From: a virus
Lineage: Duplodnaviria; Heunggongvirae; Uroviricota; Caudoviricetes
Reading direction: 5' to 3' (one strand)
Virus record (IMG/VR): IMGVR_UViG_3300048904_000202
Span: 4,007 to 68,006 of that record
Length of the DNA: 64,000 bases
Shown here: positions 43,608 through 59,345 of the stretch, one piece after another
Numbering within the stretch: the stretch's first letter is position 1
Layout: each line of letters starts with the position of its first letter
Translations under genes and position numbers: made by a program
The notes under the pieces: model-generated
Databases searched by the model: none
Seen by the model: only the letters and a program-made list of their open reading frames with translations
Told to the model about the DNA's origin: nothing

Positions 43608-44240
43608 ATGGCTACCCCGACCACCAAAACTGCACCCAAAGCTACCACCAAGCGCGTTACCGGTAAAGCAGGCTCGACCGCGCCGAAGCGGGCGCCCAAG
43701 TCCGAGCAGCAGCAGGCCGGCGGCACGACCGCGCTGGAGAAGTCGCGCGCTCACATCACTGGGCAACCGGCGGCCGGGGGCAAGCCAGCCGGCGCAGCGC
43801 CGGAAGTAAAAGCTCCAGCGGATTCGCTGAATGCCGGTGGCGCCGCGATCGAGAACAAGGTGGCCGGCGAGGGCGCGATTGCGACCGACCAGATCATCAC
43901 CGAAGCCGATGGCACCATGCGCGGCGGCACCAAGCGGGTGAAGATCGAGGTGATGGAGGTCCTGTCGCGCGGTGGTCTCAACACGCGCCGCGAGGAGGAA
44001 TATCCCTTCACCGCTCTTCCGATGTCCGAAGTGATCGACGGTAAGCCCAAGGGTCCGTCGTTCTTCATTCCGAAGAGCGATGCTCCGGACCAGAAGGTCG
44101 CCACCGCCCGCAAGCGTTATCGCGGCAAGGACGTGCAGTTCGTGACGCGCAAGCACGAGGAAGTCGTCGAGGGCGAAGAGAAGAAGGGCAAGCAGCCCGG
44201 TCTCCGCGTCTGGAAGGTTCCGGGCGGCACTCTCCGATAA
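43608..44240 (+). CDS. Putative DNA-binding protein with Lys/Ala/Thr-rich N-terminal tail
   Basis: Basic low-complexity N-terminus; C-terminal YPF...SFF.P...A.KRY...F.TR...GLRVW pattern; AAGGAG RBS. Confidence 0.55.
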   Translation: MATPTTKTAPKATTKRVTGKAGSTAPKRAPKSEQQQAGGTTALEKSRAHITGQPAAGGKPAGAAPEVKAPADSLNAGGAAIENKVAGEGAIATDQIITEADGTMRGGTKRVKIEVMEVLSRGGLNTRREEEYPFTALPMSEVIDGKPKGPSFFIPKSDAPDQKVATARKRYRGKDVQFVTRKHEEVVEGEEKKGKQPGLRVWKVPGGTLR

Positions 44241-44261
44241 GCTTCCGGCTTCGGCTGGATC

Positions 44262-44297
44262 GGCCGTCGCCCGTTAGCGGGCGGCGGCCTTTTTATT
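44262..44297 (+). terminator. Rho-independent terminator
   Basis: GGCCGTCGCCCG-TTAG-CGGGCGGCGGCC then TTTTTATT. Confidence 0.8.
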
Positions 44298-44410
44298 GAA
44301 CTACTCCGGACGAACGGGGTTGACGGCGCAGCGAGAATAAGCCATCTCGCGGTAGAGAGTTGAGTCGGACTCACATTCTCGCTTGACTTGTCGAGTGAAA
44401 GTGTGCATAT

Positions 44411-44686
44411 GGCCACTCTCCCTGAACGGGGCCGCCGGTATATCCCCCAACAGCCGGCGGCCCTAAGGGATGCTCCATGGTTTACCGAGGGGCTGGATCA
44501 GCCCGCCAAACCTACCCGGACGCCGCCTAGCTTGGGCAGACGAAGGATAACATAGGCAGGTCCGGCAGTGATGAGAGTGAAAGCGGTCGTTCTTGATGGC
44601 CCTTCGTGAAGTGGGAGATAAGCGCCTCACGGATCGCTGGTCTTGATGGAGCGGAGTTAGTAACCCGCTGTCAGGGTAAGTGGTCC
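44411..44686 (+). ncRNA. Unidentified multi-stem structured RNA, about 275 nt
   Basis: Nested closing stems GGCCACT/AGTGGTC and CCCTGA/TCAGGG; several internal hairpins; no ORF in the track; TTGACT box at 44383. Confidence 0.5.
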
Positions 44687-44730
44687 AGTCTCGTGGTAAG
44701 CCGTGGACAAAATAATTTCACAAAGGGGGG

Positions 44731-44760
44731 TTGACTTTAGTCCATGAGTTGGACTATAAG
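44731..44760 (+). promoter_or_regulatory. Sigma70-type promoter of tRNA operon 1
   Basis: TTGACT-N18-TATAAG. Confidence 0.75.
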
Positions 44761-44810
44761 CTGCACTCCAACGCGGTTCGCCGCATTTGAAAGAGTTTCG
44801 AGTTCCAGTC

Positions 44811-44903
44811 ATGGCACGCAATATCAACAACCCAGCACCAATGATCGCCGCCGTCGCGGCGATTGTGGTTGTGCGTGTCGAAGACGGAGGAACGCAGGTC
44901 TAG
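44811..44903 (+). CDS. Leader peptide 1 (MARNINNPAPMIAAVAAIVVVRVEDGGTQV)
   Basis: 21 of the first 23 codons encode M/A/N/I/P/V, the amino acids of the downstream tRNAs; followed by a terminator. Confidence 0.75.
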   Translation: MARNINNPAPMIAAVAAIVVVRVEDGGTQV

Positions 44904-44936
44904 CCCGACCTACATTCCTGACACCACCGAATTTGA

Positions 44937-44974
44937 AGGGCCTCAGATCATCCGATCCGGGGCCTTTTTCTTTT
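44937..44974 (+). terminator. Attenuator terminator before tRNA operon 1
   Basis: Stem 44937-44949/44954-44966 plus TTTTTCTTTT, 11 nt upstream of the first tRNA. Confidence 0.8.
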
Positions 44975-44985
44975 CACGGTTTTGT

Positions 44986-45062
44986 CAGGGTGTGGCTCAG
45001 TCCGGTAGAGCGTGCCCCTCGGAAGGGTGAGGTCGCGGGTTCGAATCCCGCCGCCCTGACCA
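44986..45062 (+). tRNA. tRNA-Pro(CGG)
   Basis: Cloverleaf, anticodon CGG, encoded CCA. Confidence 0.9.
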
Positions 45063-45152
45063 AACCGTGATCCACTGAGGTGGTTCGCAAGATTTGAAGT
45101 TGACCGACTGGTCGCTTCCGACTAGCAGCACCGCCTCACTCGATGTGGTTGG

Positions 45153-45229
45153 CGGGAAGTGGCGCAGTCTGGTAGCGCACCGGTCTCGGGGTCCGGGGGT
45201 CGCAGGTTCGAATCCTGTCTTCCCGACCA
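45153..45229 (+). tRNA. tRNA-Pro (anticodon read as CGG; U-U mismatch in stem)
   Basis: Pro-type body, loop CTCGGGG, encoded CCA. Confidence 0.8.
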
Positions 45230-45232
45230 CAT

Positions 45233-45309
45233 TGCAGTGTAGCTCAGCCCGGTAGAGCGGCGGATTCATGCTCCGCGCAGCGTTGGTTCAAATCCAGCCA
45301 CTGCAACCA
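45233..45309 (+). tRNA. tRNA-Met(CAT) (Ile2 not excluded)
   Basis: Cloverleaf, anticodon CAT, encoded CCA. Confidence 0.8.
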
Positions 45310-45323
45310 GTTTCGTAGGTAAT

Positions 45324-45399
45324 GCGGGATTAGCTCAGGGGTAGAGCGTCGGTATGACATGCCGAGACAGCGGTGGTTCAAATCCATCATTCCGCACCA
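45324..45399 (+). tRNA. tRNA-Val(GAC)
   Basis: Cloverleaf, A73, encoded CCA. Confidence 0.9.
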
Positions 45400-45404
45400 C
45401 CTAC

Positions 45405-45480
45405 GCCTCGTTAGCTCAGGGGTAGAGCGTCGGTATCACACACCGAGCCAGCGGTGGTTCAAATCCATCACGAGGCACCA
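45405..45480 (+). tRNA. tRNA-Val(CAC)
   Basis: Cloverleaf, paralogous to Val(GAC), encoded CCA. Confidence 0.9.
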
Positions 45481-45829
45481 GATAGAGGCTGAAATGCCGA
45501 AACATCGGAATTAACCAGTCCGAGAAGGTTGCAGTTACGAAGAACATGCACCGGCAGGCAGGGTGGTCCCCTGACGATACCGGACTTGGTATGTAGGCTT
45601 CGTCAGCGAGCAGCGTCCGGTGCGAGAGCATCAGACCAGTGATGGTCAGGCGGCCGTGGGTCCGAGGCAGATACCCACCGAAATTTCCCGGTCCCAGCCG
45701 GCCGTCAGTCCCATGGGACGATCGCCACACAAAGGGAGGGTAAACGGTGTGACAGTACCGGCGGCGCGCAATCCCGCGATCAGCCGCTGCGGAAAGCACA
45801 CGGGCCGGAGACAAGACATACCGGGCTAC
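45481..45829 (+). ncRNA. Unidentified structured RNA, about 350 nt, inside tRNA operon 1
   Basis: Nested stems GCACCGG/CCGGTGC, CTGACGA/TCGTCAG, CGGCCG/CGGCCG, GTCCC/GGGAC, CACAC/GTGTG; no credible ORF. Confidence 0.5.
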
Positions 45830-45906
45830 GGGGATGTAGCTCAGTTGGGTAGAGCGCCTGCCTTGCAAGCAGGATGTCGCGAGTTCGAACCTCGCCTTCT
45901 CCACCA
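45830..45906 (+). tRNA. tRNA-Ala(TGC)
   Basis: G3:U70, anticodon TGC, encoded CCA. Confidence 0.95.
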
Positions 45907-45916
45907 GCCCGGTTGT

Positions 45917-45993
45917 TTGCCGTAGCCGAACAAGGTGGACGGGGCTGACTGTTAATCAGCTTATGGTAGGTTCGATGCCTACACGGCAAGCCA
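45917..45993 (+). tRNA. tRNA-Asn(GTT), atypical D arm
   Basis: GCTGA-CTGTTAA-TCAGC anticodon arm, G73, encoded CCA. Confidence 0.8.
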
Positions 45994-46008
45994 GTTTCAA
46001 AGACCCGT

Positions 46009-46086
46009 CCTCGGGTAGCTCAGTTGGTAGAGCGGTGGACCGATAATCCATGTCTTGCGGTGGTTCAAACCCACCCCTGAGGACCA
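46009..46086 (+). tRNA. tRNA-Ile(GAT)
   Basis: Cloverleaf, anticodon GAT, encoded CCA. Confidence 0.9.
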
Positions 46087-46223
46087 TCTATTACCGTCCG
46101 TTTATCTGTCCCGGTAGGGCGCGGAGATACGGCTTGGTGAAGATGTACCGTCTATAGGCTGCGGCTGCTTCGGCCCCGTCAGCTTGGCCGGTGCACTCTA
46201 AGCGCGGTAATCACCAGCCCCGG

Positions 46224-46254
46224 AGCCCGTCACCCTAGTGGTGGCGGGCTTTGT
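46224..46254 (+). terminator. Terminator of tRNA operon 1
   Basis: AGCCCGTCACC/GGTGGCGGGCT stem plus TTTG. Confidence 0.6.
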
Positions 46255-46359
46255 GATTCATGCTCAGCAACATTCCGACACATTTAAGCAAAGAATGACT
46301 TGACATATGCGAGTCTAGAGTTAGTGATACTCATCACCCATCCAAGGGAGATTCGCAAA

Positions 46360-46887
46360 ATGGTCAAGAAGGTTATTCTCGCTGCCACCGTGGCCGGCCT
46401 CGCGCTGACTGCTTCGGCCTGTAACCGGGCTCCCGCCTATGGTTACTACAACGACGGCTACTATGCCGGCGCAAACACGCAGGTCTGCACCGATCGCGCC
46501 GGCCGCCGCGTCCCCGATATCAACTGCCAGCAGGCCTATTACGGCGGCGGCTACAATCCCTACCTCTGGTATTATGTCGGCGGCGGTTACCCCGTTCCCT
46601 ATTACGGGACCGTGGTCCACGGCGGTACTTGGTCGCGTCCGTCGAACTTCCGCAGTTATGTCCGCGCACCGGCTCAAGCCAACGTGACCCGCTCGGTCGC
46701 CGTTTCGCGCGGCGGCCTCGGCTCGACCAGCCGCAGCTTCGCGCAGACCTATTCATCGCCGTCGCGCTCGTATTCGTCGAGCAGCTATTCGTCGCCGTCC
46801 CGATCCTACTCGTCGAGCAGCTATAGCTCGTCGCGTTCGTCGTTCAGCGGGGGCGGGCGCTCGTTCGGCGGGAGCGTCAGTTCGTGA
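46360..46887 (+). CDS. YgiB/DUF1190-like lipoprotein
   Basis: Lipobox TASAC, C.D..G.RV.D..C, Tyr/Gly-rich middle, SRGG.G, Ser-rich tail; adjacent to a Gsp-like ligase. Confidence 0.7.
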   Translation: MVKKVILAATVAGLALTASACNRAPAYGYYNDGYYAGANTQVCTDRAGRRVPDINCQQAYYGGGYNPYLWYYVGGGYPVPYYGTVVHGGTWSRPSNFRSYVRAPAQANVTRSVAVSRGGLGSTSRSFAQTYSSPSRSYSSSSYSSPSRSYSSSSYSSSRSSFSGGGRSFGGSVSS

Positions 46888-48035
46888 AGCGCATCCAGAC
46901 CACCCCGCGTACTGACTGGCAGGCCCGTATTCGTGATGCGGGGATGGTCTGGGCAGGCGCTGACACCGGCGGCTGGAATGAGTCCGCCTATTACTCCTTC
47001 ACCAATGAGGACATCGAGCGGATCGGCGAAGCCACCGCCGACCTCTATCGGCTGTTCATCCATTGCGGCGACGCAATGCTGGACTACCGCGACTTCTACT
47101 GGCTGCGTCAGATGGGGATGCCCGAGTGGCTGTTCCCCTATCTCAAGGCGGCGTGGGACGCGGAACCACCGGCTCTCAATTTCGGTCGCTTCGATCTCGG
47201 GTTCGACGGTCGCAATGACCCGAAGCTGTTCGAGTTCAACTGCGACACGCCCGGCAGCCTGATCGAGGCATCGTTGGCGCAAGCGATCTGGCGCGAGGAC
47301 CTGTTCCCGCGCGGTGACCAGTTCAACGGTATCAACCGGGCGCTCGTGTCGCGCTGGGCCGACCTTCGCACCTCGTTCTACGGTCGCACCTTCCACATGA
47401 CGCACGTCTTCGACGAGGACGGCGAGGACACAGCCATCACCAACTATCTGGCCGAGACCGCTCGCATGGCTGGTCTCGATCCCATGATGGTGGTGATCGA
47501 CGACATCGGTCAGGACGAGGAAGGTCGCTTCGTTGACGCCGACGACATCCTCATGGACGTGGTGTACAAGCACTACCCGTGGGAGTGGATCGTCCGTGAA
47601 GAATACGGCCGCGCCATCGTCGAGCAGTCCTCGGACCCGATGCTATGGATCGAGCCGATCTGGAAGATGCTCTGGTCGAACAAGGGAATCCTCGTCGTCG
47701 CCAAGGCGCTGGAGCCCGAGAACCCTTACCTGCTTAACGCCAGCTTCGGGGATACCGGCGCGAAGGACTTCGTGAAGAAGCCCATCTTCTCGCGACGTGG
47801 TGAGAACATCGAGATCGTAGATCAGCGCCAGACCAGCGCGCGGTCCACCGGCGGCTACGGTGCCGAGGGCTTCGTCTATCAGGAGAAGTTCGATCTCCCC
47901 GAGATGGCTCCCGGCATCTTCCCGGTGATCGACTCGTGGATCGTCGGCGGCGTCGCAGTCGGCATGGGTGTCCGCGAAGGCGGCCTCATCACAGACAGTT
48001 CGGCGGCTTTCGTCCCTCACATTATCGAGGGGTGA
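46884..48035 (+). CDS. Glutathionylspermidine synthase family ATP-grasp ligase (YgiC-like)
   Basis: W.ESAYY, GRFDLG.DG...KLFEFNCDTP, YPWEW, IEP.WK...SNKG, KKPIFSR.GENI. Confidence 0.9.
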   Translation: MKRIQTTPRTDWQARIRDAGMVWAGADTGGWNESAYYSFTNEDIERIGEATADLYRLFIHCGDAMLDYRDFYWLRQMGMPEWLFPYLKAAWDAEPPALNFGRFDLGFDGRNDPKLFEFNCDTPGSLIEASLAQAIWREDLFPRGDQFNGINRALVSRWADLRTSFYGRTFHMTHVFDEDGEDTAITNYLAETARMAGLDPMMVVIDDIGQDEEGRFVDADDILMDVVYKHYPWEWIVREEYGRAIVEQSSDPMLWIEPIWKMLWSNKGILVVAKALEPENPYLLNASFGDTGAKDFVKKPIFSRRGENIEIVDQRQTSARSTGGYGAEGFVYQEKFDLPEMAPGIFPVIDSWIVGGVAVGMGVREGGLITDSSAAFVPHIIEG

Positions 48036-48036
48036 G

Positions 48037-48318
48037 ATGAGCTACGACGGCAGTGTGAAGTGGCAGCATGTCGAGGCTGCTCTGGCCCGTGATGGCTTCG
48101 CGCTGACGTTCGCCTGCACCTACGGCGAGTCTCTCCCCGCCGACCTTGAGTACACCGGCCGGGAAACCGGCTGGGAACTTCGCCGGAAGCTGAAATCCTA
48201 CTGTGCCTCACATGGGATCACCAACTTCCAGATCATTCGCAACACGAGCTACCACCGCGATCTGCACGGCAACGCCGTCTACGAGTTGTGGACTCGCCCT
48301 AACCAGATTGAGGGCTGA
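48037..48318 (+). CDS. Hypothetical protein
   Basis: Co-oriented. Confidence 0.55.
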   Translation: MSYDGSVKWQHVEAALARDGFALTFACTYGESLPADLEYTGRETGWELRRKLKSYCASHGITNFQIIRNTSYHRDLHGNAVYELWTRPNQIEG

Positions 48319-48319
48319 C

Positions 48320-48541
48320 ATGGACGCGACACAATTCTGCTACTGGCTACAGGGCCTTTTCGAACTCGGCGAGCCGACGACGCTCGACGAAGTTCAGGTC
48401 GATCTCATCAAGCGACATCTCGCGATGGCTTTCGAGCATGACATCGACCGTCGCCCGCCAGTCGAAGAGCAGAAGGTCCTCAACAACATCCATGCTGGAA
48501 CAACGCCCGCGTTTCAGCGGCCAAAAGGGATGAGGTGCTGA
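48320..48541 (+). CDS. Conserved phage hypothetical protein
   Basis: QFCYWLQG.FEL...IK.HL...F pattern. Confidence 0.65.
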   Translation: MDATQFCYWLQGLFELGEPTTLDEVQVDLIKRHLAMAFEHDIDRRPPVEEQKVLNNIHAGTTPAFQRPKGMRC

Positions 48542-48542
48542 C

Positions 48543-48773
48543 ATGGATACCGATCCCGCCACAATCGCGTCGAAGCTCAACCGTGGACAGAAGTCCACCA
48601 TCCGCTGCCTCGACGATACCCCGTCCGTTCTCGGCTGCGCCGAACCAACGGCTTTACGGCTTTCGCGCGCCACAACTCGCCGGCCGGCGCTGACCTATTA
48701 CACGCAAGGCGCTTCGTGGAAGATGTTCGCCCTCACGCCGATCGGACTCGAAGTTCAGGAGCATTGTTCGTGA
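48543..48773 (+). CDS. Hypothetical protein
   Basis: Co-oriented. Confidence 0.5.
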   Translation: MDTDPATIASKLNRGQKSTIRCLDDTPSVLGCAEPTALRLSRATTRRPALTYYTQGASWKMFALTPIGLEVQEHCS

Positions 48774-49294
48774 CCAGTCCCGCCATGCACTACGCCATCA
48801 CGGCCCACGCCATCACGGCCCACGCCATCACGGCCCACGCCGGCCAAACCTATGGCGACAATGCGGTTCCCTACACGGAACATCTCTTCGCGGTCCGACA
48901 GGTGCTGCGGGACTTCGGGTATTTCGGCGACTATGAAGATGCCGGCGTCCTCCATGACGTGATCGAGGACACCGCCGAGAGCCGCCGCACCGTGGCCGTC
49001 AAGTTCGGAGATCGGGTCGCCACCATGGCGTGGGTCTGCACCGGCGTTGGCCCGAACCGCGTCGTTCGCAACTGGTCCATCTACGCCAAGATGAGCATGT
49101 TTCCCGAGGCCGCGCCGGTGAAGGTCGCCGATCGGATCGCGAATGTCGAGCAGGCCACACCCGGATCGAAACACGCCAAGATGTATCTCGCCGAAGCGGG
49201 TGAGTTCCACGAACACGTCGCGCGGCTCGTGCCTCCACTGATGCAGGCCCGTCTCCTGCGGGCCTACGACGCCGCAGCACAGGTGCCGGCATGA
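48770..49294 (+). CDS. HD-domain (p)ppGpp hydrolase-like protein (SpoT-HD/Mesh1 type)
   Basis: AH.GQ.Y....PY..HL..V, AGVLHDVIEDT, VKVADRIAN. Confidence 0.8.
   Translation: MTSPAMHYAITAHAITAHAITAHAGQTYGDNAVPYTEHLFAVRQVLRDFGYFGDYEDAGVLHDVIEDTAESRRTVAVKFGDRVATMAWVCTGVGPNRVVRNWSIYAKMSMFPEAAPVKVADRIANVEQATPGSKHAKMYLAEAGEFHEHVARLVPPLMQARLLRAYDAAAQVPA
48792..48841 (+). repeat. 15-nt perfect tandem repeat x3.3 (AITAH)
   Basis: ACGCCATCACGGCCC x3 plus ACGCC. Confidence 0.95.
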
Positions 49295-49410
49295 CCCTCG
49301 GTGGCTTCCTCCTCATGCTGGTGATCGTGTTCGTCATCGTCCTGTTCGTCGCGATCGTATGCGGCGTGGACCTGTCGGACATCTTCTTCTTCCTGCCGGA
49401 CGGTAACTGA
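49291..49410 (+). CDS. Small membrane protein (not in ORF track)
   Basis: MTLGGFLLMLVIVFVIVLFVAIVCG...; coupled on both sides. Confidence 0.5.
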   Translation: MTLGGFLLMLVIVFVIVLFVAIVCGVDLSDIFFFLPDGN

Positions 49411-49610
49411 TGACCGCGCGCCAGTTCGTCTTCCTACTCCAGTGGGGTTGGTTGATGTTGCTCGCTGGTCTCTTCTCGCTTCTCTGCATGCCGATGTTCG
49501 CCATGCACGCGTGGATGGAGCGCAAGCCTCATCCGTGGCGCTGGGCGTGGGGTGTGGTGTCGAGCGGCGGCTTTCGGGATTTCGCGAAGGATTGGAGAAA
49601 GTACGGATGA
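49410..49610 (+). CDS. Small membrane protein
   Basis: TM helix; coupled. Confidence 0.5.
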   Translation: MTARQFVFLLQWGWLMLLAGLFSLLCMPMFAMHAWMERKPHPWRWAWGVVSSGGFRDFAKDWRKYG

Positions 49611-50119
49611 ACAAGCTCCAAGCCGCGACCGACACCGTCAAGGAACTGCTCTGCTGGTACGTCATCCTGCTGTTCGCAGCAGCCGGCGTCTACATGTTCG
49701 CGGAACACACATCACTCGACGACGCGCTCTATTGGGCAGCGACCACCGCGACCTCGACCGGGTATGGTGACCTGTCGCCGAAGACGATCGCCGGCCGGAT
49801 TGATGCCGTGCTGCTCATGCACATCTCGATCTTCGTCATCGCGCCCATGATGATCGTCCGCCTCATCGACAGGATGCGCGTCGATCCGAACGTCTTCACG
49901 GACGAGGAGCAGAAGGAGGTGCTGGAACACCTGCGAGCGATCCGGGACAAGGTCGGTGAGCCGGATTACGGCAAGTCGCCCCGTCTAGCTCAGACGCTCA
50001 GGCAGCTTCGCAACACCTATTACCACATGCTGCGAGCGCCTGATTTCTGCACGAAGGCTGCTGCGGCCTCCATCAAGATGGCGATCGACCAGCTTGAGAA
50101 AGTGGCGAAGGAACAGTGA
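49607..50119 (+). CDS. Two-TM potassium channel (KcsA-like pore)
   Basis: TM1-pore helix (DALYWAATT)-TSTGYGDLSP filter-TM2. Confidence 0.85.
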   Translation: MNKLQAATDTVKELLCWYVILLFAAAGVYMFAEHTSLDDALYWAATTATSTGYGDLSPKTIAGRIDAVLLMHISIFVIAPMMIVRLIDRMRVDPNVFTDEEQKEVLEHLRAIRDKVGEPDYGKSPRLAQTLRQLRNTYYHMLRAPDFCTKAAAASIKMAIDQLEKVAKEQ

Positions 50120-50283
50120 TGGACGACATCGACGTGGATCAGTTCGTGGCCGAAGAGATCGAGAGCCTCCGCCGCTTCGCTGCGATGTGGAAATCCGAAT
50201 CGGCGAACGACCCGGAAATCTGGCCGGCGAACATGCGGCGCGGCGAATGGGATGAGCAGTTCCGCTCGTACGAGGGCGCGTGA
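50119..50283 (+). CDS. Hypothetical protein (not in ORF track)
   Basis: MDDIDVDQFVAEE...WDEQF; coupled. Confidence 0.5.
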   Translation: MDDIDVDQFVAEEIESLRRFAAMWKSESANDPEIWPANMRRGEWDEQFRSYEGA

Positions 50284-50591
50284 TGACGGACCCTATCGGC
50301 AACTGCGAATGCGGCGCACCGCTGGCTGAGACCGGTCCGCCGATCTGGGAAACCTACTGCACGGACGAGAAGTGCAAGGTCGCTTGGAACAAACTGGTCA
50401 AGGCTATCCGCGAGGCGCCGTTGCCGCCGCTTACCGGACGATATGCCGCCGAGATCAAGCAGATCGCTGCCGAGCTTCGCCATACCTACGACCATCTGGT
50501 GAATGGCACCACCAGTGATCCCGCCGAATTGGCGAGAGGCCTGCTCGGCCCACAGATCGTGCGGCTTGAGAAGCTGACAGGAGGGAAGTGA
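50280..50591 (+). CDS. Hypothetical protein
   Basis: Coupled; CECG...C....C. Confidence 0.5.
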   Translation: MMTDPIGNCECGAPLAETGPPIWETYCTDEKCKVAWNKLVKAIREAPLPPLTGRYAAEIKQIAAELRHTYDHLVNGTTSDPAELARGLLGPQIVRLEKLTGGK

Positions 50592-51223
50592 TGAAGAACA
50601 ACGTCTATTACGAAGCCGTCGCAGGTGAGGTTCTCGCCTTCTGCTTCGACTACCGCGAGCGCCTGATCGCAAAGCGCGACGTGTTTCAGGAGTACGCCAA
50701 GTCCAAGGGCGCGAAGGGCTGGGTTGGTTCATGGGGTGATTTCTTCGGCCTGCTCTATGAGCGCGATGCCGATCGCCCTAAAGGCCTTGTTGCCGCCAAG
50801 CGCAAGACCAACGACGGCTACACTGTCTGGCGTCCCCATGGGAAGTCGCCCGAGGGTAAGGAACTTCGCCGCGAGTTCGACGACCTTGGTCGAGAGCCAC
50901 GTGGTCACGAGTTCTGCAAGCGGTTCAACATCCCGGAGTCCTTGAGCTACCGGAAGTCCGAGGAGTGCTACGGCACCATGGCGCTCAACGCCATCTTCCC
51001 CGACTCGGCCTTCATCGGCTGGACCGGAGAAGGTGACGATCTTCGCTTCTGGGTCGTGCTACCGGACGTGGATGGTGCCATCGCCGACAAGACTGCCGAG
51101 GGTTACACCTGCGATCCTGCTTCGTGGACTCTGCCGGCCGGGCTAATTCTCTCCAGCCGAGCCCGCTACGATCTCGCCGTGGCGCAGGCCAAGGTGCGGG
51201 AAGAGGAGCTTGAGGCGGCGTGA
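50588..51223 (+). CDS. Hypothetical protein
   Basis: GGAGGG RBS; 211 aa. Confidence 0.65.
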   Translation: MMKNNVYYEAVAGEVLAFCFDYRERLIAKRDVFQEYAKSKGAKGWVGSWGDFFGLLYERDADRPKGLVAAKRKTNDGYTVWRPHGKSPEGKELRREFDDLGREPRGHEFCKRFNIPESLSYRKSEECYGTMALNAIFPDSAFIGWTGEGDDLRFWVVLPDVDGAIADKTAEGYTCDPASWTLPAGLILSSRARYDLAVAQAKVREEELEAA

Positions 51224-51438
51224 TCACCGACGATCAACTGGTGGCGCTGCTCATCGACGCCCACACCACCCGGCACGATCCCGAGTTCGGATCGAGCTAT
51301 CACCAGACCGACCGCTTCGATGTCGAGATCGAGAACGGGATCATCAAGGTCGGCACCGGCGGAGGTGACTTCTACGCGGTGACGCTCGATCTCGAACAGT
51401 TCCGTGCCGGCGTCGAAGCCCTGATCCGGAGCGATTGA
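51220..51438 (+). CDS. Hypothetical protein
   Basis: GTGA overlap. Confidence 0.5.
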   Translation: MITDDQLVALLIDAHTTRHDPEFGSSYHQTDRFDVEIENGIIKVGTGGGDFYAVTLDLEQFRAGVEALIRSD

Positions 51439-51632
51439 TGCTCACCTACCTAGACCGGGCTTTCTGCACCGCCAAGTGTCTCACCCTCGATTGTCCACGC
51501 AACGTGACGCCAGAGGTCGAAGCGGCTGCGGAGAAATGGTGGGGAGGCCCGGATTTCCCGATGAGGCTCATGCCGCTCAATGAGCAGTGTGATGGCTACC
51601 AGCCAGCGCCGGAGGGCATCTGCAATGCCTAA
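51435..51632 (+). CDS. Small Cys-rich protein
   Basis: D..FC....C....C.R pattern. Confidence 0.55.
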   Translation: MMLTYLDRAFCTAKCLTLDCPRNVTPEVEAAAEKWWGGPDFPMRLMPLNEQCDGYQPAPEGICNA

Positions 51633-51996
51633 GGCCGGACGATTGCAGTGCAAGGACATCCCGGATCAGCCGATCCTCCAGTTCCTACACGACCAGCCGG
51701 TAGTTGGCACCAGCGTCAGCAAGGACGGGTTACCGTTCAGGCGTTGGACCAACTGGTTCTGGGACCCGAAAGGATCATATGAGCCAAATCCTGAATACGA
51801 ATACTTGCCTGACAACTCCGTTGCTCGTGCAATGCCGGAAGGCGTCTGTGACAAGCTGCGGATCGCCAAGATGGCGATGATGATCCGGCGCGGCATTGTG
51901 GATGGATGTCCGTGCGGGTGCCGAGGCGACTTTGTGATCACCAAGAAGGGCGAGGACCTGCTTGCCAAAATGAAAGAGGCCGAATGCCAGACGTAA
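51625..51996 (+). CDS. Hypothetical protein
   Basis: QCKDIPD.PIL.FL...L..GC.CGCRGDF.IT.KG. Confidence 0.6.
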   Translation: MPKAGRLQCKDIPDQPILQFLHDQPVVGTSVSKDGLPFRRWTNWFWDPKGSYEPNPEYEYLPDNSVARAMPEGVCDKLRIAKMAMMIRRGIVDGCPCGCRGDFVITKKGEDLLAKMKEAECQT

Positions 51997-52520
51997 CGTT
52001 CACAGATGACGTGCAGGTGGTGGGCCTCCCGTTCAAACCCGGTGATTGGGCCGTCGATCCGTGCGGCGAACGTGTAGCGAAGGTCGTTCGCGTCTACCGG
52101 TGCGGCGAAGATGTGCTGCTCGATCTCTCGATCTACAGCCATAAGGGCGAACGCCTCGGCCGGACCTCTCCGGCGATGGGTGGTCCAACGAAGACCGAGC
52201 CCGCGTGTGATGCAAAGAATTGGGAGAGGATCGCCGAGCCTGACTTTCCGATCACCATAAAGTGGGTGCCCAGCAGCGACGGTAAGGTGTCGGCGCGATA
52301 TTGGGCAGGGGATCGTCTGCCGCCAGCCAACTACGTCCCTCGGCCGAAGAAACCGAAGGCGAAGCCGGCGACGCGTCGCTCCGATTTCCCAGCGACGCTG
52401 GACAAGGAAGAGTACCAGCATCTGGTGGAGCTTTTCGCCGGTGCCAACGATCCGATCGCCATCTCGATCGTGACCAAGGCGCAGGGGATGCTCGACTGGT
52501 ACACGAAGATCGGACTCTAG
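51984..52520 (+). CDS. Hypothetical protein
   Basis: Co-oriented; GAGG RBS. Confidence 0.55.
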   Translation: MPDVTFTDDVQVVGLPFKPGDWAVDPCGERVAKVVRVYRCGEDVLLDLSIYSHKGERLGRTSPAMGGPTKTEPACDAKNWERIAEPDFPITIKWVPSSDGKVSARYWAGDRLPPANYVPRPKKPKAKPATRRSDFPATLDKEEYQHLVELFAGANDPIAISIVTKAQGMLDWYTKIGL

Positions 52521-52557
52521 CCAGACAAACTTTTTTCGTCCTTATGTCGATTTTGGG

Positions 52558-52586
52558 TTGACCTAGACCATCCGCCTGTGTATAAG
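52558..52586 (+). promoter_or_regulatory. Sigma70-type promoter of tRNA operon 2
   Basis: TTGACC-N17-TATAAG. Confidence 0.8.
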
Positions 52587-52633
52587 CCCACCTCTCGACG
52601 CACTTCCGCGTCAACAGGATTATTGAGACCACC

Positions 52634-52690
52634 ATGTTCTTCGGGACCAAACGAGATCGCCGAGAAGGCGAACGAGGTTTTAGCCTCTAA
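52634..52690 (+). CDS. Leader peptide 2 (MFFGTKRDRREGERGFSL)
   Basis: 14 of 18 residues are F/G/K/R/D/E, the amino acids of the downstream tRNAs. Confidence 0.75.
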   Translation: MFFGTKRDRREGERGFSL

Positions 52691-52726
52691 CCCGGTGGTG
52701 TGTCCTGCTGCCGGTGTCGTTTTGAC

Positions 52727-52803
52727 GGATCGGTAGCTCAATAGCGTAGAGCGGTGGGTTCTTACCCCGCAGGTTGTGGGTTCGACCCCCACCCGATCCT
52801 CCA
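52727..52803 (+). tRNA. tRNA-Lys(CTT)
   Basis: Cloverleaf, encoded CCA. Confidence 0.9.
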
Positions 52804-52825
52804 AAACGACATCGGTAAAATTGAC

Positions 52826-52854
52826 ACCCCATCGGCGACCCCGGTGGGGTTTTT
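52826..52854 (+). terminator. Attenuator terminator after the first tRNA of operon 2
   Basis: ACCCCATCGG/CCGGTGGGGT stem plus T-run. Confidence 0.7.
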
Positions 52855-52876
52855 CGCGTCCGCATTCTCGGCTCAT

Positions 52877-52951
52877 GGATCGGTAACTCAATGGGCAGAG
52901 TGGCGGACTTTTAATCCGAGGGTGTGGGTTCGAGGCCCACCCGATCTACCA
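52877..52951 (+). tRNA. tRNA-Lys(TTT)
   Basis: Cloverleaf, encoded CCA. Confidence 0.9.
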
Positions 52952-52967
52952 AATTTCACGGGCCTGA

Positions 52968-53040
52968 GCGGTTGTAGTCTCAGCGGTAGAGCGTCGGCTT
53001 GCCAAGTCGAAGGTCGCGGGTTCGATCCCCGCCTGCCGCT
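52968..53040 (+). tRNA. tRNA-Gly(GCC), CCA not encoded
   Basis: Anticodon GCC, U73. Confidence 0.85.
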
Positions 53041-53156
53041 CAAGCCCGTGATCACAAGTTTCCAGCGGGGTCCGCGCCAGTCCAAGACCTTCATGGGAAA
53101 GCCGATCGACCATAGGACCAGCGCAGTTGGTCGATCGTGAAATGAGATGTGTTGAT

Positions 53157-53231
53157 GCGGCCGTAGCCAAGCGGTCAAGGCAGGAGGCTTCCACCCTCCC
53201 AGCGCGGGTTCGATCCCCGCCGGCCGCTCCA
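53157..53231 (+). tRNA. tRNA-Gly(TCC)
   Basis: Cloverleaf, U73, encoded CCA. Confidence 0.9.
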
Positions 53232-53242
53232 TCACCTCTCAC

Positions 53243-53317
53243 GGACACGTAGCTCAGTGGTAGAGTCTCGCACTGTCGATGCGAGTGTCGCGGGTTCGAT
53301 CCCCGTCGTGTCCGCCA
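53243..53317 (+). tRNA. tRNA-Asp(GTC)
   Basis: Cloverleaf, G73, encoded CCA. Confidence 0.9.
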
Positions 53318-53323
53318 CTTCAC

Positions 53324-53399
53324 GGCCCGTTCGTCTAGCTGGACAGGACGACCGCCTCTCACGCGGTAAGCAGGGGTTCGATCCCCCTACGGGCTACCA
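53324..53399 (+). tRNA. tRNA-Glu(CTC)
   Basis: Cloverleaf, encoded CCA. Confidence 0.9.
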
Positions 53400-53420
53400 G
53401 TACCCACATGCTTTCAGCAT

Positions 53421-53494
53421 GGCCCCATAGACTAAGGGTAGGTCGCCAGTTTTTCACGCTGGAAGTCGGAGTTCAATTCTCCGTGGGGCTACCA
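53421..53494 (+). tRNA. tRNA-Glu(TTC)
   Basis: Cloverleaf, encoded CCA. Confidence 0.9.
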
Positions 53495-53536
53495 ATTTGA
53501 CGGACACCGCGCTGGTCGCGATCCGTCCACGAGTAC

Positions 53537-53612
53537 GCCGCTATAGCTCAACAGGATAGAGCGCGGGATTACGAATCCCAAGGTCGAGGTTCGAGTCCTC
53601 GTAGCGGCTCCA
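53537..53612 (+). tRNA. tRNA-Arg(ACG)
   Basis: Cloverleaf, encoded CCA. Confidence 0.9.
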
Positions 53613-53620
53613 GCCTCTTC

Positions 53621-53695
53621 GCCGAGGTAGCTCAGTGGTAGAGCGCCGGCTTGAAATCCCGGAAGTCGCAGGTTCAACTCCTGCTCTCGGCACCA
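53621..53695 (+). tRNA. tRNA-Phe(GAA)
   Basis: Cloverleaf, encoded CCA. Confidence 0.9.
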
Positions 53696-53735
53696 TCTCC
53701 AAATAGGGAAAATAACACTGCGTCAAAAATAGTTG

Positions 53736-53764
53736 TTGACACTACCACTCGACCTGTGTATAAG
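53736..53764 (+). promoter_or_regulatory. Sigma70-type promoter of tRNA operon 3
   Basis: TTGACA-N17-TATAAG. Confidence 0.8.
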
Positions 53765-53771
53765 CCGCTCC

Positions 53772-53852
53772 ATGTTCACACAGACCCTCTTGAGCCTAAC
53801 CGGCACGACGCTTTGGCATTATTGCCAACAGCATCTGAGTTCATCCCTCTAA
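53772..53852 (+). CDS. Leader peptide 3 (MFTQTLLSLTGTTLWHYCQQHLSSSL), probably leaderless mRNA
   Basis: 23 of 26 residues are S/Y/L/T/H/Q/C/W, the amino acids of the downstream tRNAs; ATG lies 7 nt after the -10 box. Confidence 0.78.
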   Translation: MFTQTLLSLTGTTLWHYCQQHLSSSL

Positions 53853-53887
53853 GGGGAGTGGTCTGACGCCCGCTCCCCTCTCCATAC

Positions 53888-53975
53888 GGAGGGTTGGCAG
53901 AGTGGGTTATTGCGGCGGTCTCGAAAACCGCTGAACCGAAAGGTTCCGTGGGTTCAAATCCCACACCCTCCTCCA
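53888..53975 (+). tRNA. tRNA-Ser(CGA)
   Basis: Long variable arm, encoded CCA. Confidence 0.9.
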
Positions 53976-53984
53976 GATTTTCAG

Positions 53985-54024
53985 AGCGTCAGCAGCCTAC
54001 GGGCCGCTGGCGCTTTTTCGTTTT
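53985..54024 (+). terminator. Attenuator terminator after the first tRNA of operon 3
   Basis: AGCGTCAGC/GCTGGCGCT stem plus TTTTTCGTTTT. Confidence 0.75.
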
Positions 54025-54114
54025 GGGTCGTCTTCCCCTCGCCGGACTGTAACCCCGGTGCCATCGAACCGAGGGGCTGTGTGGCGGGAGGTTCGAGTCC
54101 TCGACGACCCACCA
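54025..54114 (+). tRNA. Non-canonical tRNA-Tyr(GTA) lacking a D arm
   Basis: Perfect 7-bp acceptor, A73, CCA, T arm and GTA anticodon arm; only 10 nt where the D arm should be. Confidence 0.7.
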
Positions 54115-54157
54115 TTCTATTCCAGCAGGAGTACGATCAAGAGTTCACGAGTTGCAC

Positions 54158-54245
54158 GCACTGGTGGCGGAACTGGATATACGCAGCAAGCTCAGACCTT
54201 GCCGCCCTTTGAGGATTGTGGGTTCGAGTCCCACCCGGTGTACCA
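54158..54245 (+). tRNA. tRNA-Leu(CAG)
   Basis: Long V arm, A73, encoded CCA. Confidence 0.9.
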
Positions 54246-54256
54246 GCAACTCGAAC

Positions 54257-54341
54257 GCGGATGTGGTGAAATAGGTAAACGCAGCGGGTCGAGAGCCCGC
54301 CGGCTTCGGCCTTGTGGGTTCAAGTCCCACCTTCCGCACCA
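54257..54341 (+). tRNA. tRNA-Leu(GAG)
   Basis: Long V arm, A73, encoded CCA. Confidence 0.9.
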
Positions 54342-54355
54342 GTTACCTCGTGATT

Positions 54356-54429
54356 GCCGGCGTAGCTCAATGGTAGAGCTACGGCGTCGTAACCCGTAGA
54401 CCTGAGTTCGATTCTCAGCGCCGGCTCCA
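54356..54429 (+). tRNA. tRNA-Thr(CGT)
   Basis: Cloverleaf, encoded CCA. Confidence 0.85.
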
Positions 54430-54457
54430 CGAGTTGATCAGTGTCCATGGGCGTGGT

Positions 54458-54533
54458 GTGGCCTAACGCAATACAGTGCGCGGCCGGATTGTGACTCCGG
54501 TGCTAGAGGGTGCAGGTCCCTCAGGTCACCCCA
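54458..54533 (+). tRNA. tRNA-His(GTG), divergent D/T loops, C73
   Basis: GTGGCCT/AGGTCAC acceptor, CCGGA-TTGTGAC-TCCGG arm, encoded CCA. Confidence 0.75.
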
Positions 54534-54547
54534 CGCCCATGGATAGT

Positions 54548-54621
54548 TGCCCCTTCGGCTAATGGTAAGCCTTCTGACTCTGAATCAGACAATCGAGGTT
54601 CGATTCCTCGCGGGGCATCCA
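54548..54621 (+). tRNA. tRNA-Gln(CTG)
   Basis: Cloverleaf, U1-A72, encoded CCA. Confidence 0.9.
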
Positions 54622-54676
54622 GATTAGGGAGACGACGATATGGACGATACTCTCGATCGACAACCGAACGGCTTAA

Positions 54677-54750
54677 TGCCCGTTCGGCTAATGGTAAGTC
54701 GCTGCACTTTGAATGCGGAGACCTTGGTTCGATCCCAAGACGGGCATCCA
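54677..54750 (+). tRNA. tRNA-Gln(TTG)
   Basis: Cloverleaf, encoded CCA. Confidence 0.9.
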
Positions 54751-54752
54751 GA

Positions 54753-55079
54753 TCAGAGCGTCGTGTATCCGTTATCGATGCACATGCTCATGATGCCGTA
54801 ACGCAGTGTGGTGTTGTCCGCCGGGCTGGTGACATAGGCCTGATCGGCCCGAACGATGTGGCCAGCGGCGTTGCGGTAAATCGCTACCTTGAAGGTGCGG
54901 CCGTTCGCCCGTCCGCACACGACAACGGCGTCGGACTTGACCGGATCGGTTGCGATCTGCGGACGGTTGGGCAGGAAGCTGGCGATGGCGTTAGAGATCA
55001 CAACCTTCTCGGTAGGCAGCAAGGGGCGCGCCTCGGCCGAGGGTGTAGCGACAAGAGCCGCGATGAGGATTAAGGACAT
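54753..55079 (-). CDS. Secreted hypothetical protein, antisense within tRNA operon 3
   Basis: Signal peptide MSLILIAALVATPSAEA; VVCG..NG and terminal C; AGGAGAA RBS. Confidence 0.6.
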   Translation of the reverse strand: MSLILIAALVATPSAEARPLLPTEKVVISNAIASFLPNRPQIATDPVKSDAVVVCGRANGRTFKVAIYRNAAGHIVRADQAYVTSPADNTTLRYGIMSMCIDNGYTTL

Positions 55080-55158
55080 GGGGGTTCTCCTATCTGGTGG
55101 AATTTCTGCCGGACCATAGGATGGACCGATAAAGGAGACAACAAGATTCAGGGTTAAC

Positions 55159-55245
55159 GGAAGGTTGGCCGAGCGGTAAGGCACCCGCTTGCTAGGCGGG
55201 CGAGACCTCAGGGTTGCGTGGGTTCGATCCCCACACCTTCCTCCA
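55159..55245 (+). tRNA. tRNA-Ser(GCT)
   Basis: Long V arm, encoded CCA. Confidence 0.9.
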
Positions 55246-55252
55246 CCCTGTT

Positions 55253-55301
55253 TGCGTCATATATGGCGCACTAACCGGCTTTATGCGTCATATATGGCGC
55301 A
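55253..55301. repeat. Duplicated 18-bp quasi-palindrome TGCGTCATATATGGCGCA
   Basis: Exact copies at 55253-55270 and 55284-55301. Confidence 0.85.
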
Positions 55302-55304
55302 AAC

Positions 55305-55378
55305 GGCGCGATGGCCGAGTGGTAAGGCTCCGGATTGCAACCCCGGCATCGCCGGTTCAATTCCGGCTCGCGTCTCCA
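55305..55378 (+). tRNA. tRNA-Cys(GCA)
   Basis: U73, encoded CCA. Confidence 0.9.
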
Positions 55379-55385
55379 GTTTCAT

Positions 55386-55460
55386 ATCGGTGTAGCTCAG
55401 TGGTAGAGCGGCGGCTTCCAATCCCGCGCGTCCGAGGTTCGATTCCTTGCACCGGTGCCA
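55386..55460 (+). tRNA. tRNA-Trp(CCA)
   Basis: G73, encoded CCA. Confidence 0.9.
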
Positions 55461-55967
55461 TTACGCTCCCAGCGGCTTGCGGAGGATGCCCCATTGGGAA
55501 ATCCCCGCCTTGCGCAGCAGGGAGACGGGCTCGAAAGCAGTGATGCTGTTGAAATACACGAGATGGTCATGGGGACTGGTTCGACGCTGATTTAGTCCGA
55601 GCGTTTCCAGTATCCGCATCACCCAATCCATATGAGGAACCGGCGAGGTCAGTAGCAACACGCCGCCGGGTTTTAGCAGGGCCTTCGCCTCCTCCGTGAA
55701 ATCAACATGCTCGATCACCTCGAAGGCCACGATCGCGTCAAACGACGCAGGCTCCAAACCGAGCTTTCGCCAATCGCGGATATCTCCGACGACATCGGCT
55801 GGCTCGACGATGTCATTCCCCACATAGTTGATCCATCCGTGGCTGCGAAGATACTCACCCACCCACCGCGACCCACACCCGATCTCTAGGATGCGGGCGT
55901 CTTTTGGCAGCGGGTTCAAAAAATACTCGATCTTCTTGCGCTGTGCATATTCACTCAGGGCCGGCAT
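55461..55967 (-). CDS. Class I SAM-dependent methyltransferase
   Basis: ILEIGCGS, SFDAIVAFEVIEH, LLKPGG.L.L.SP. Confidence 0.85.
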   Translation of the reverse strand: MPALSEYAQRKKIEYFLNPLPKDARILEIGCGSRWVGEYLRSHGWINYVGNDIVEPADVVGDIRDWRKLGLEPASFDAIVAFEVIEHVDFTEEAKALLKPGGVLLLTSPVPHMDWVMRILETLGLNQRRTSPHDHLVYFNSITAFEPVSLLRKAGISQWGILRKPLGA

Positions 55968-56216
55968 GACACCCCTCCTCGTCGCTCTAGATCGACCCTA
56001 AAGGCCTGATGGTTAACACTTTCCTACCGGAAAGAAACCAACTTATCAAACCACTTAAAGAGCGAAACGATCAGTCGGGGTCCGTACGGTCCACGATGCG
56101 AAAAAAGATGGGCCACGTATGGTCCATCTTTATGCACGCTTCATGTTGATTTGGTATCCTCTTGGGTCCGCGTCCCTCTCTGGATGCGTCATCCCCATCA
56201 TCCACGAGGAAGTACC

Positions 56217-56645
56217 ATGTCGAAGAGCAATACCTTCGAGAACGATCTGCTCAAGCTCATTTTTCAGGGGATCGCCATTCCGGGCATCGCTGACAACACT
56301 GCGACAGCGCCGTTGGGCAATCTGTACGTCGCGCTCCACACTGCCGATCCGGGCGAGGGTGGTGACCAGACCACCAACGAAGTGAACTACACCGGTTATG
56401 CCCGTGTCGCTGTCACCCGTTCGGGCGCTGGCTGGACCGTTGCTGGCTCAGTCGTGAGCCCGACGATTAATATCGACTTCCCCACAGGCACCGGAGGCGC
56501 CTCTACCGCAGCTTTCTTCTCGGTTGGTACCGCGCTGAACGGCGCCGGCAAGATTCTGTACTCGGGCACGATCACTCCGAGCATCGCCTGCGGCAACGGC
56601 GTCACCCCGCGTATCTCGACCGCCTCCACCATCACCGAGGATTAA
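56217..56645 (+). CDS. Putative virion structural (fibre/appendage) protein
   Basis: EN.LL...LYVALHTADPGE.G....E..Y.GYARVAV pattern of phage fibre-associated proteins. Confidence 0.65.
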   Translation: MSKSNTFENDLLKLIFQGIAIPGIADNTATAPLGNLYVALHTADPGEGGDQTTNEVNYTGYARVAVTRSGAGWTVAGSVVSPTINIDFPTGTGGASTAAFFSVGTALNGAGKILYSGTITPSIACGNGVTPRISTASTITED

Positions 56646-56666
56646 TCCTCGGCCCGAGGGGGCTTC

Positions 56667-58277: not shown

Positions 58278-58558
58278 GCTTCCCCAAGTTCCCGCATCCA
58301 AAAGACCCCGACGACGTGGCGGACTATGCCATCGATTGGACAGCACGACTCGACGCCGGTGATTCCCTTGCGGACTCTCTCTTCGAGGTGGTGTCGGGTA
58401 CCATTTTGCTGGGCGCTCAATCGATCGACGGCAACAAGGCCACCGTCTGGGTCAACGGTGGCGAAGACGGTGAAACGGCCACCATCCTCAACCGCGTGAC
58501 GACCACCGGTGGGCGGCAATACGACCAGACGTTCGCGCTAAAAATTAAGACGCAGTGA
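58274..58558 (+). CDS. Fibre/tail adaptor-like protein
   Basis: KDPDD..DY.IDW..RL..GD.L...VW.NGG..G....I.NRVTT.GGR..DQT. Confidence 0.65.
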   Translation: MSFPKFPHPKDPDDVADYAIDWTARLDAGDSLADSLFEVVSGTILLGAQSIDGNKATVWVNGGEDGETATILNRVTTTGGRQYDQTFALKIKTQ

Positions 58559-58567
58559 TATTCTTAG

Positions 58568-58596
58568 TTGACAGTGATGCGAATCACGTCTAGTAA
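58568..58596 (+). promoter_or_regulatory. Promoter of the ncRNA/tmRNA operon
   Basis: TTGACA-N17-TAGTAA. Confidence 0.7.
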
Positions 58597-59336: not shown

Positions 59337-59345
59337 ACGAGATTT

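Follow-up and report, generated by a model that had tools for sequence, protein, structure and literature searches.

Here we describe three operons of transfer RNA (tRNA) genes in a 64,000-nucleotide (nt) stretch of viral DNA, referred to as the window (positions 4,007 to 68,006 of IMG/VR record IMGVR_UViG_3300048904_000202; Caudoviricetes), each headed by a promoter and by a short open reading frame (ORF), or leader, that consists largely of the amino acids whose tRNAs are encoded downstream. Our results indicate that each unit is likely a ribosome-mediated transcription attenuator that senses decoding capacity, and that each tRNA set is probably made only when ribosomes decode its amino acids slowly. 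That the leaders are translated, in which direction the switch works and which signal it senses are all three points that we infer from sequence. The source record, from an uncultured phage, is 164,476 nt long and was judged complete; all sequencing runs listed as containing this stretch are DNA metagenomes. Among cultured phages it is closest to Sphingobium phage Lacusarx and to Erythrobacter phages XM05 and vB_EliS-L02 (L02), with which it shares gene order and a primase-like protein of 1107 amino acids (aa) that is 63-69% identical. The Lacusarx, XM05 and L02 group has been described as CbK-like siphoviruses infecting alphaproteobacteria (PMC5648845, PMC9127768).

A first-pass annotation of this DNA, made from the sequence alone, had counted 28 tRNAs in three operons covering all 20 amino acids, split 6+6+8 with no amino acid in two operons, and this count was confirmed. 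ARAGORN called 26 tRNAs in three plus-strand blocks, in agreement with Rfam, and a His(gtg)-like and a Tyr(gta)-like gene, both missed by Rfam and by ARAGORN at default settings, complete the set. The Tyr-like gene (54025-54114) was read by eye; it lacks an ordinary D arm and has a variable region of about 28 nt. The His-like gene (54458-54533) is divergent and was detected at a relaxed threshold; its acceptor helix is extended to 12 base pairs (bp), its D loop is large and its T loop is unusual. In relatives, homologues of both genes are clear. The three promoters named in the annotation were confirmed as well: TTGAC-N17/18-TATAAG is found at three sites in the window, where none is expected, and at no other site in the whole genome, and each copy stands upstream of one leader and its tRNA block. 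The short leader ORFs were present as quoted, and apart from internal ATGs nested within them, no other ATG-initiated ORF of at least 10 codons lies between a promoter and the first tRNA behind it. The promoters, leaders and tRNA genes are as follows.

44731..44760, plus strand: promoter P1, TTGACT-N18-TATAAG (motif search, window and genome)
44811..44903, plus strand: leader ORF 1, 30 codons, MARNINNPAPMIAAVAAIVVVRVEDGGTQV (ORF search, composition test)
44986..46086, plus strand: tRNA operon 1, Pro(cgg) x2, Met, Val(gac), Val(cac), Ala(tgc), Asn, Ile (ARAGORN, Rfam)
52558..52586, plus strand: promoter P2, TTGACC-N17-TATAAG (motif search, window and genome)
52634..52690, plus strand: leader ORF 2, 18 codons, MFFGTKRDRREGERGFSL (ORF search, composition test)
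52727..52803, plus strand: tRNA-Lys(ctt), first tRNA of operon 2, between the candidate antiterminator strand and terminator T2 (ARAGORN)
52877..53695, plus strand: remainder of operon 2, Lys(ttt), Gly(gcc), Gly(tcc), Asp, Glu(ctc), Glu(ttc), Arg(acg), Phe (ARAGORN, Rfam)
53736..53764, plus strand: promoter P3, TTGACA-N17-TATAAG (motif search, window and genome)
53772..53852, plus strand: leader ORF 3, 26 codons, MFTQTLLSLTGTTLWHYCQQHLSSSL (ORF search, composition test)
53888..53975, plus strand: tRNA-Ser(cga), first tRNA of operon 3, upstream of terminator T3 (ARAGORN)
54025..55460, plus strand: remainder of operon 3, Tyr-like, Leu(cag), Leu(gag), Thr(cgt), His-like, Gln x2, Ser(gct), Cys, Trp (ARAGORN; Tyr-like by eye; His-like at relaxed threshold)

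With Met1 omitted, residues belonging to the leader's own operon make up 21/29 of leader 1, 14/17 of leader 2 and 23/25 of leader 3, or 58/71 in sum, and each of the 20 amino acids occurs in the leader of its own operon, as had been claimed. When the 20 amino acids were partitioned at random into sets of 6, 6 and 8, none of 1,000,000 partitions reached 58/71 (the maximum was 55) and none of 1,000,000 reached full coverage.

The same match was found in five relatives obtained from DNA-pattern scans and BLAST, namely Lacusarx, two IMG/VR contigs, L02 and XM05; counts out of six phages given below refer to the source phage and these five. Leaders 2 and 3 are kept in all five relatives and leader 1 in four. 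All 17 frames begin with ATG, and their lengths change by whole codons only (28-31 codons for leader 1, 18-20 for leader 2 and 22-27 for leader 3). Leaders 2 and 3 end 33-38 nt ahead of the first tRNA in every phage, and leader 1, where present, ends 64-83 nt ahead of it. Each of the six phages has 55-62 own residues out of 71-74, with full coverage. The leader 1 sequences are far diverged (for example MARNINNPAPMIAAV vs MRNIPAINMIAAPANMV), and the order of the rare residues in leader 3 varies (WHYCH, CHYW, HWHYCH, HHWYC, HCWCY, HYCWYC), with W, H, Y and C each present in every leader 3 despite the scrambling. Since order is scrambled while composition and frame are kept, this is the pattern expected from selection on the composition of a translated frame; RNA structure or a folded peptide would hardly account for it.

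The tRNAs for Met, Val and Arg(acg) that the program missed in relatives are present there with unusual T-loops, and therefore the partition is the same in all six phages. In several of the relatives' tRNAs, T loops such as GGCAGGA or GCGCACA replace the usual TTCGAAT type, and ARAGORN misses them; anticodons read by eye were Val(cac), Val(gac), Met(cat) and Arg(acg) (XM05 8489-8561 and 8755-8827; L02 8638-8709; Met and Arg(acg) candidates on the reverse strand of L020). Citromicrobium phage RXM, a more distant relative, has the syntenic place without a tRNA array, and when metagenomes were scanned with a 17-mer taken from the leader 3 end, the hits were extra copies of one relative and chance matches, and nothing else.

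The phiCbK-like Caulobacter phages (phiCbK, CcrColossus and CcrSC) offered a separate test, since their operons hold amino-acid sets other than those of the window. Their units have the same succession of promoter, composition-matched short ORF, terminator and tRNA block; the amino-acid partition differs, the terminator lies upstream of all tRNAs and the antiterminator lies within the ORF. Two units of phiCbK are relevant here.

phiCbK unit 1: promoter, 45-codon frame annotated as gp083, terminator, then tRNAs
phiCbK unit 2: promoter, frame MSKTYRQFVRQIQVVRNIRAGRSRMADEGFRD, terminator, then tRNAs Tyr-like, Phe, Val, Ile, Ile, Val, Gln, Gln, Asn, Arg, Gly

Behind gp083 lie tRNAs for Pro, Pro, two Thr, Lys, Lys, Leu x3, His, Ala and Ser x3, and 41 of the 44 residues that follow Met1 in this frame are A, L, S, H, T, K or P. 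Combined, the two leaders have 62 own residues out of 75, a value reached by none of 300,000 random partitions. The expectations of the first-pass annotation, that such ORFs would be conserved in related phages and that their composition would co-vary with array content, were therefore borne out, the latter by two of the three phiCbK leaders. The Thr and Tyr genes of phiCbK (JX100813) are unannotated tRNA-like sequences at about 6194-6378 and 7780-7865, with anticodon loops GGU and CGU (Thr, read by eye) and GUA (Tyr); according to the Lacusarx paper, tRNA-Thr and tRNA-Tyr are missing from phiCbK-like phages (PMC5648845).

CcrColossus and CcrSC retain the second of these leaders, leader C, together with its operon. 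In all three phages leader C ends in x-D-G-G-T/S-x-x-stop and carries a stop-spanning hairpin, and window leader 1, with a core of N, I, P, A, M and V followed by the tail xDGGTxx, has both. The hairpin is present, with differing sequences, in five of five leaders 1 of the Lacusarx group and in the three phiCbK-type leaders. Because of the common tail and hairpin, leader 1 and leader C are probably homologous. Leader 1 is rich in P, M and A and leader C in Y, F, Q and R, in parallel with the difference between their operons (Fisher p 0.006 for one pair), and V, I and N, the three amino acids common to both operons, are kept in both leaders.

Leader C also provides the clearest candidate for a switch. 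Its codons 15-24 are a near copy of the terminator 3' arm, and the predicted free energy (dG) of this in-frame strand paired with the terminator 5' arm is -27 to -33 kcal/mol, equal to that of the terminator itself and matched by none of 300 shuffles. The strand and the terminator arms change together among phiCbK, CcrColossus and CcrSC. When a ribosome was modelled as a mask on CcrSC leader C, terminator probability was about 0 with the ribosome held in the first 13 codons vs 0.98 with the ribosome advanced. A ribosome stalled in these composition-matched 13 codons would thus leave the antiterminator strand free, and an advanced one would cover it.

In the window, the annotation had placed an intrinsic terminator after each leader. 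A strong one does follow leader 1 directly, but what comes next to leader 2 is a weak hairpin that has a U-run, and next to leader 3 a hairpin that lacks one, and the strong terminators of operons 2 and 3 were found only past their first tRNAs, Lys-CUU and Ser-CGA respectively. The RNA elements involved are listed below.

44887..44920, plus strand: stop-spanning hairpin of leader 1 (folding)
44938..44978, plus strand: intrinsic terminator T1, arms 44938-44949 and 44954-44964, then U-run, about 10 nt upstream of tRNA-Pro (folding)
52691..52703, plus strand: segment 'a', directly 3' of the leader 2 stop, candidate antiterminator strand, which also forms a local hairpin with 52708-52714 (pairing with T2 5' arm)
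52711..52723, plus strand: strand 'c', 5' flank of tRNA-Lys(ctt), pairing with 'd' (52804-52815) and lengthening the acceptor stem (alignment of pairing)
52823..52855, plus strand: terminator T2, 5' arm 'e' 52823-52835, 3' arm 'f' 52841-52850, then U-run, about 22 nt upstream of tRNA-Lys(ttt) (folding)
53853..53878, plus strand: hairpin directly 3' of the leader 3 stop, without U-run, of which 53860-53869 (end of 5' arm and loop) is complementary to the T3 5' arm (folding)
53983..54024, plus strand: terminator T3, downstream of Ser(cga), with the Tyr-like tRNA directly after (folding)

Operon 1 has the classical layout, with the strong terminator T1 ahead of the entire operon. In operons 2 and 3, unlike the phiCbK-type units, the candidate antiterminator strand lies 3' of the stop codon and the first tRNA is within the switch. 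In operon 2 of the window, segment 'a' pairs with the T2 5' arm with a dG of -19.3 kcal/mol (p 0.002), and the a:e pairing is found in all six phages at -13 to -19 kcal/mol with p of 0.05 or less, with 60/72 cells paired and 2 compensatory pairs. The c:d helix flanking tRNA-Lys(ctt) has 64/72 cells paired and 5 compensatory pairs, and the read-through form would consist of a:e, c:d and the acceptor stem as one long helix. With a ribosome footprint masked, the terminator was improbable while the ribosome stood on early codons and reached a probability of 0.88-0.99 once it stood on late codons or the stop, in five of six phages, and phiCbK leader B responded in the same direction, from low at early codons to high at late codons or stop. 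Competing antiterminator pairings in operon 2 and, very strongly, in leader C support the attenuation reading put forward in the first-pass annotation. We also considered, and rejected, a pairing between 'a' and the leader 2 ribosome-binding region, as it was not consistently above shuffles (p 0.05-0.66). Operon 3 repeats the layout of operon 2, with a post-stop segment, a tRNA and then a terminator; its post-stop hairpin, whose loop is conserved, pairs with the T3 5' arm at -12 to -17 kcal/mol, and the direction of this switch is less certain. The gaps from T1-T3 to the next tRNA are about 1-25 nt, too short for a promoter.

Each unit consists of a promoter, a short frame, a candidate RNA switch, an intrinsic terminator and tRNA genes without a promoter of their own, with a leader that samples codons for precisely those 6 to 8 amino acids served by the downstream tRNAs. 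If these codons are read fast, the ribosome at the end of the frame would cover or unwind the strand that would otherwise pair with the terminator 5' arm, so the terminator would form and transcription would halt ahead of most of the tRNA genes. Slow decoding of any member of the set, when demand, starvation or tRNA damage depletes its charged tRNA, would make the ribosome lag, and the antiterminator strand would then pair with the terminator 5' arm and let RNA polymerase enter the tRNA block. The result would be three independent negative-feedback loops controlling tRNA supply. Lys-CUU and Ser-CGA would be made whatever the state of the switch, because they lie between antiterminator strand and terminator.

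The ATG of leader 3 is 7 nt past the -10 hexamer in five of six phages; as it lies only this far beyond the hexamer, the mRNA is probably leaderless, and leader 3 is probably translated from it in that form. Upstream of the ATG of leaders 1 and 2, at 14-17 nt, nearly all phages have AGGAUUU followed by GAG (window 44790-44810 and 52616-52633), preceded by a small 5' hairpin whose sequence differs between phages. The AGGAUUU...GAG motif could serve as a protein-binding site or as a ribosome-binding region of an unusual kind.

Several observations weigh against attenuation as proposed here. Truncated-transcript folding and duplex searches found no antiterminator above shuffled controls for leader 1 of the window, nor for leader 1 of G001 and G002; an in-frame strand pairs weakly in L02 and XM05 (p 0.03-0.07), and in equilibrium folding with ribosome masks T1 stays closed throughout. 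Lacusarx has no leader 1 and carries a different RNA stretch upstream of its tRNA-Pro. In operon 3, the complementarity between leader 3 and T3 is modest, with p below 0.02 in three of six phages, and T3 stays closed whenever equilibrium folding is modelled. T2 and T3, two of the three terminators, stand downstream of the first tRNA, and the distance from stop to terminator in these operons is 130-170 nt, which makes the timing less obvious than in trp. The Shine-Dalgarno-like motifs of leaders 1 and 2 are unusually distant from the ATG. A third phiCbK frame, MTHLLTRYEREATGLDTTTA, lies upstream of Glu and Asp and is mismatched to its tRNAs. Finally, leader codons cognate to the operon's own anticodons number 243/319 vs 250 expected from phage codon usage, and codon-anticodon matching above the phage's general usage was rejected. 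For their amino acids, the leaders seem to draw on the codons that the phage commonly uses, and without such enrichment sensing would be per amino acid or typical phage codons rather than per phage tRNA species; the codon choice argues for sensing per amino acid, by the pooled tRNAs of host and phage.

As an alternative, the frames might sense decoding but the position of the ribosome might control processing or stability of the tRNA precursor, for example with a:e and c:d as substrates of RNase III or RNase P/E, or access of Rho, instead of termination. The c:d helix with its compensatory pairs resembles a processing stem around tRNA-Lys, the first tRNA sits within the switch, and an antiterminator for leader 1 was not found. 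However, all units have canonical strong terminators with U-runs directly upstream of promoterless tRNA genes, and the precision with which the in-frame strand of leader C mimics the terminator 3' arm is a signature of antitermination, so we consider control at the level of processing or Rho unlikely. It is also conceivable that the logic is reversed and efficient translation of the leader favors read-through, for instance through a ribosome at the stop that melts the post-stop hairpin and frees a terminator-blocking strand, in a feed-forward coupling with translation capacity. In operon 3, a ribosome at the stop would indeed melt the post-stop hairpin and lay bare the strand that can pair with T3, and in G001 the modelled terminator probability falls slightly at the last codons. 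Yet the late ribosome would cover exactly the antiterminator strand in operon 2 and in leader C, and feed-forward leaves unexplained why a leader needs every amino acid of its operon; a reversed logic is, in our view, quite improbable.

The conserved elements might instead be RNA structures only, with the open frames as by-products, and nucleotide conservation is strong in places (about 44 nt are identical in leader 2 between the window and Lacusarx) and hairpins occur within the frames, such as an 8-bp GC hairpin in leader 1. Such an origin is very improbable, though, given that ATG, frame, whole-codon indels, stop position and composition persist where sequence and order diverge, and that composition follows operon content in a second phage lineage. 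Least plausible are small functional peptides (hydrophobic, charged and polar) whose match to the tRNAs is coincidental, for even if leader 1 resembles a small membrane segment and phiCbK gp083 is annotated as a protein, the permutation p is below 1e-6, residue order varies among relatives, the rule also holds under the different partition of phiCbK, and a PHROG search covering leaders 1 and 3 gave no match.

Attenuation is the reading we prefer, and leader-peptide attenuation itself is textbook knowledge. Multivalent leader peptides, which together with the pheST attenuator are the nearest known parallels, occur in the ilvGMEDA leader (Ile/Val/Leu) and the thr leader (Thr/Ile), besides trpL, hisL, leuL and pheL. 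The amino-acid operon attenuators resemble the window units in their promoter, short leader rich in regulatory amino acids, competing hairpins and promoterless structural genes, and there the position of the ribosome decides. However, they gate biosynthetic enzymes with runs of one to three amino acids, whereas the window leaders gate tRNA genes and sample 6-8 amino acids, often once each, and in operons 2 and 3 an entire tRNA lies between the antiterminator strand and the terminator. Supply of charged tRNA also controls genes of the translation apparatus through the pheST attenuator (pheM leader) and T-box riboswitches, which are alike in feeding decoding or charging status back onto such genes. 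These control aminoacyl-tRNA synthetases for one amino acid, and T-boxes bind uncharged tRNA directly without a ribosome. In Rfam searches only tRNA and transfer-messenger RNA (tmRNA) families reached thresholds; leader and T-box families were absent from 44000-46400 up to E = 1 and from 44000-60000 at the gathering threshold. Mycobacteria have attenuators with leaderless, cysteine-rich short ORFs; these share with leader 3, as it appears, a regulatory short ORF on a leaderless transcript, but they respond to a single amino acid, have other targets and belong to another phylum. The tRNA embedded in the switch and the probably leaderless leader are local peculiarities.

The purpose of phage tRNA genes has been debated for decades and, to our knowledge, their regulation is essentially unknown. 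If our reading is true, it would establish a direct feedback loop from decoding speed to tRNA supply and account for the splitting of tRNA arrays into sub-operons; it would also offer natural 6- to 8-input sensors usable in synthetic biology and a clear example of a peptide-coding sequence selected on composition and not order. We lean, somewhat more cautiously, toward a broader view in which large phages carry a modular autonomous translation homeostat, whose multivalent leaders, selected on composition only, would top up the tRNA subset that limits decoding, for example after host tRNA cleavage or under a codon-usage mismatch, and in which the tRNA within the switch in the Lacusarx group could couple tRNA folding or processing to the decision. 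Culturable systems for testing exist in phiCbK/Caulobacter, Lacusarx/Sphingobium, and L02 or XM05/Erythrobacter. The first-pass annotation knew of no description of such control for phage tRNA arrays, and full-text literature searches likewise returned no description of leader-peptide control of tRNA genes; as far as we can tell, this application is unpublished. The genome papers of the relatives mention neither leaders nor attenuation (PMC5648845, PMC9127768).

A link to anticodon nucleases is speculation. Genes for tRNA repair or editing do lie near the locus in relatives: Lacusarx has rtcB and tadA, and both L02 and XM05 have an RNA ligase. In tRNA-Phe (53621-53695), the closing pair 31:39 of the anticodon stem is a C:C mismatch, which might have a bearing on escape from anticodon nucleases.

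Other features of the locus were noted. Within operon 1, a 349-nt spacer between Val(cac) and Ala(tgc) (45481-45829) has no ORF or Rfam match and folds marginally above shuffles (z -1.73); the corresponding spacers of relatives measure 113-273 nt. Between operons 1 and 2 lies a gene region of about 6 kb (46300-52520), where Lacusarx has one small ORF; Pfam, which was run on neighboring genes and recognized some of them, points here to glutathionylspermidine synthase-like, HD-domain and ion-channel-like proteins. An IMG/VR search with a neighboring 536-aa protein gave no match. Operon 3 is interrupted between Gln(ttg) and Ser(gct) by a 108-codon ORF on the minus strand (54753-55079) with a signal-peptide-like start, which is not in the relatives and has no PHROG match. 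Between tRNA-Ser(gct) and tRNA-Cys, a 23-nt unit occurs twice, 31 nt apart (55248-55304), each copy with the palindrome TGCGTCATATATGGCGCA, and these repeats look like an operator. Further downstream, ARAGORN and Rfam detected a permuted alpha-type tmRNA (58936-59361) with the tag ANDNTPVVVARDEVRLAA, followed by a partial tRNA-like match of 29.7 bits at 59397-59450.

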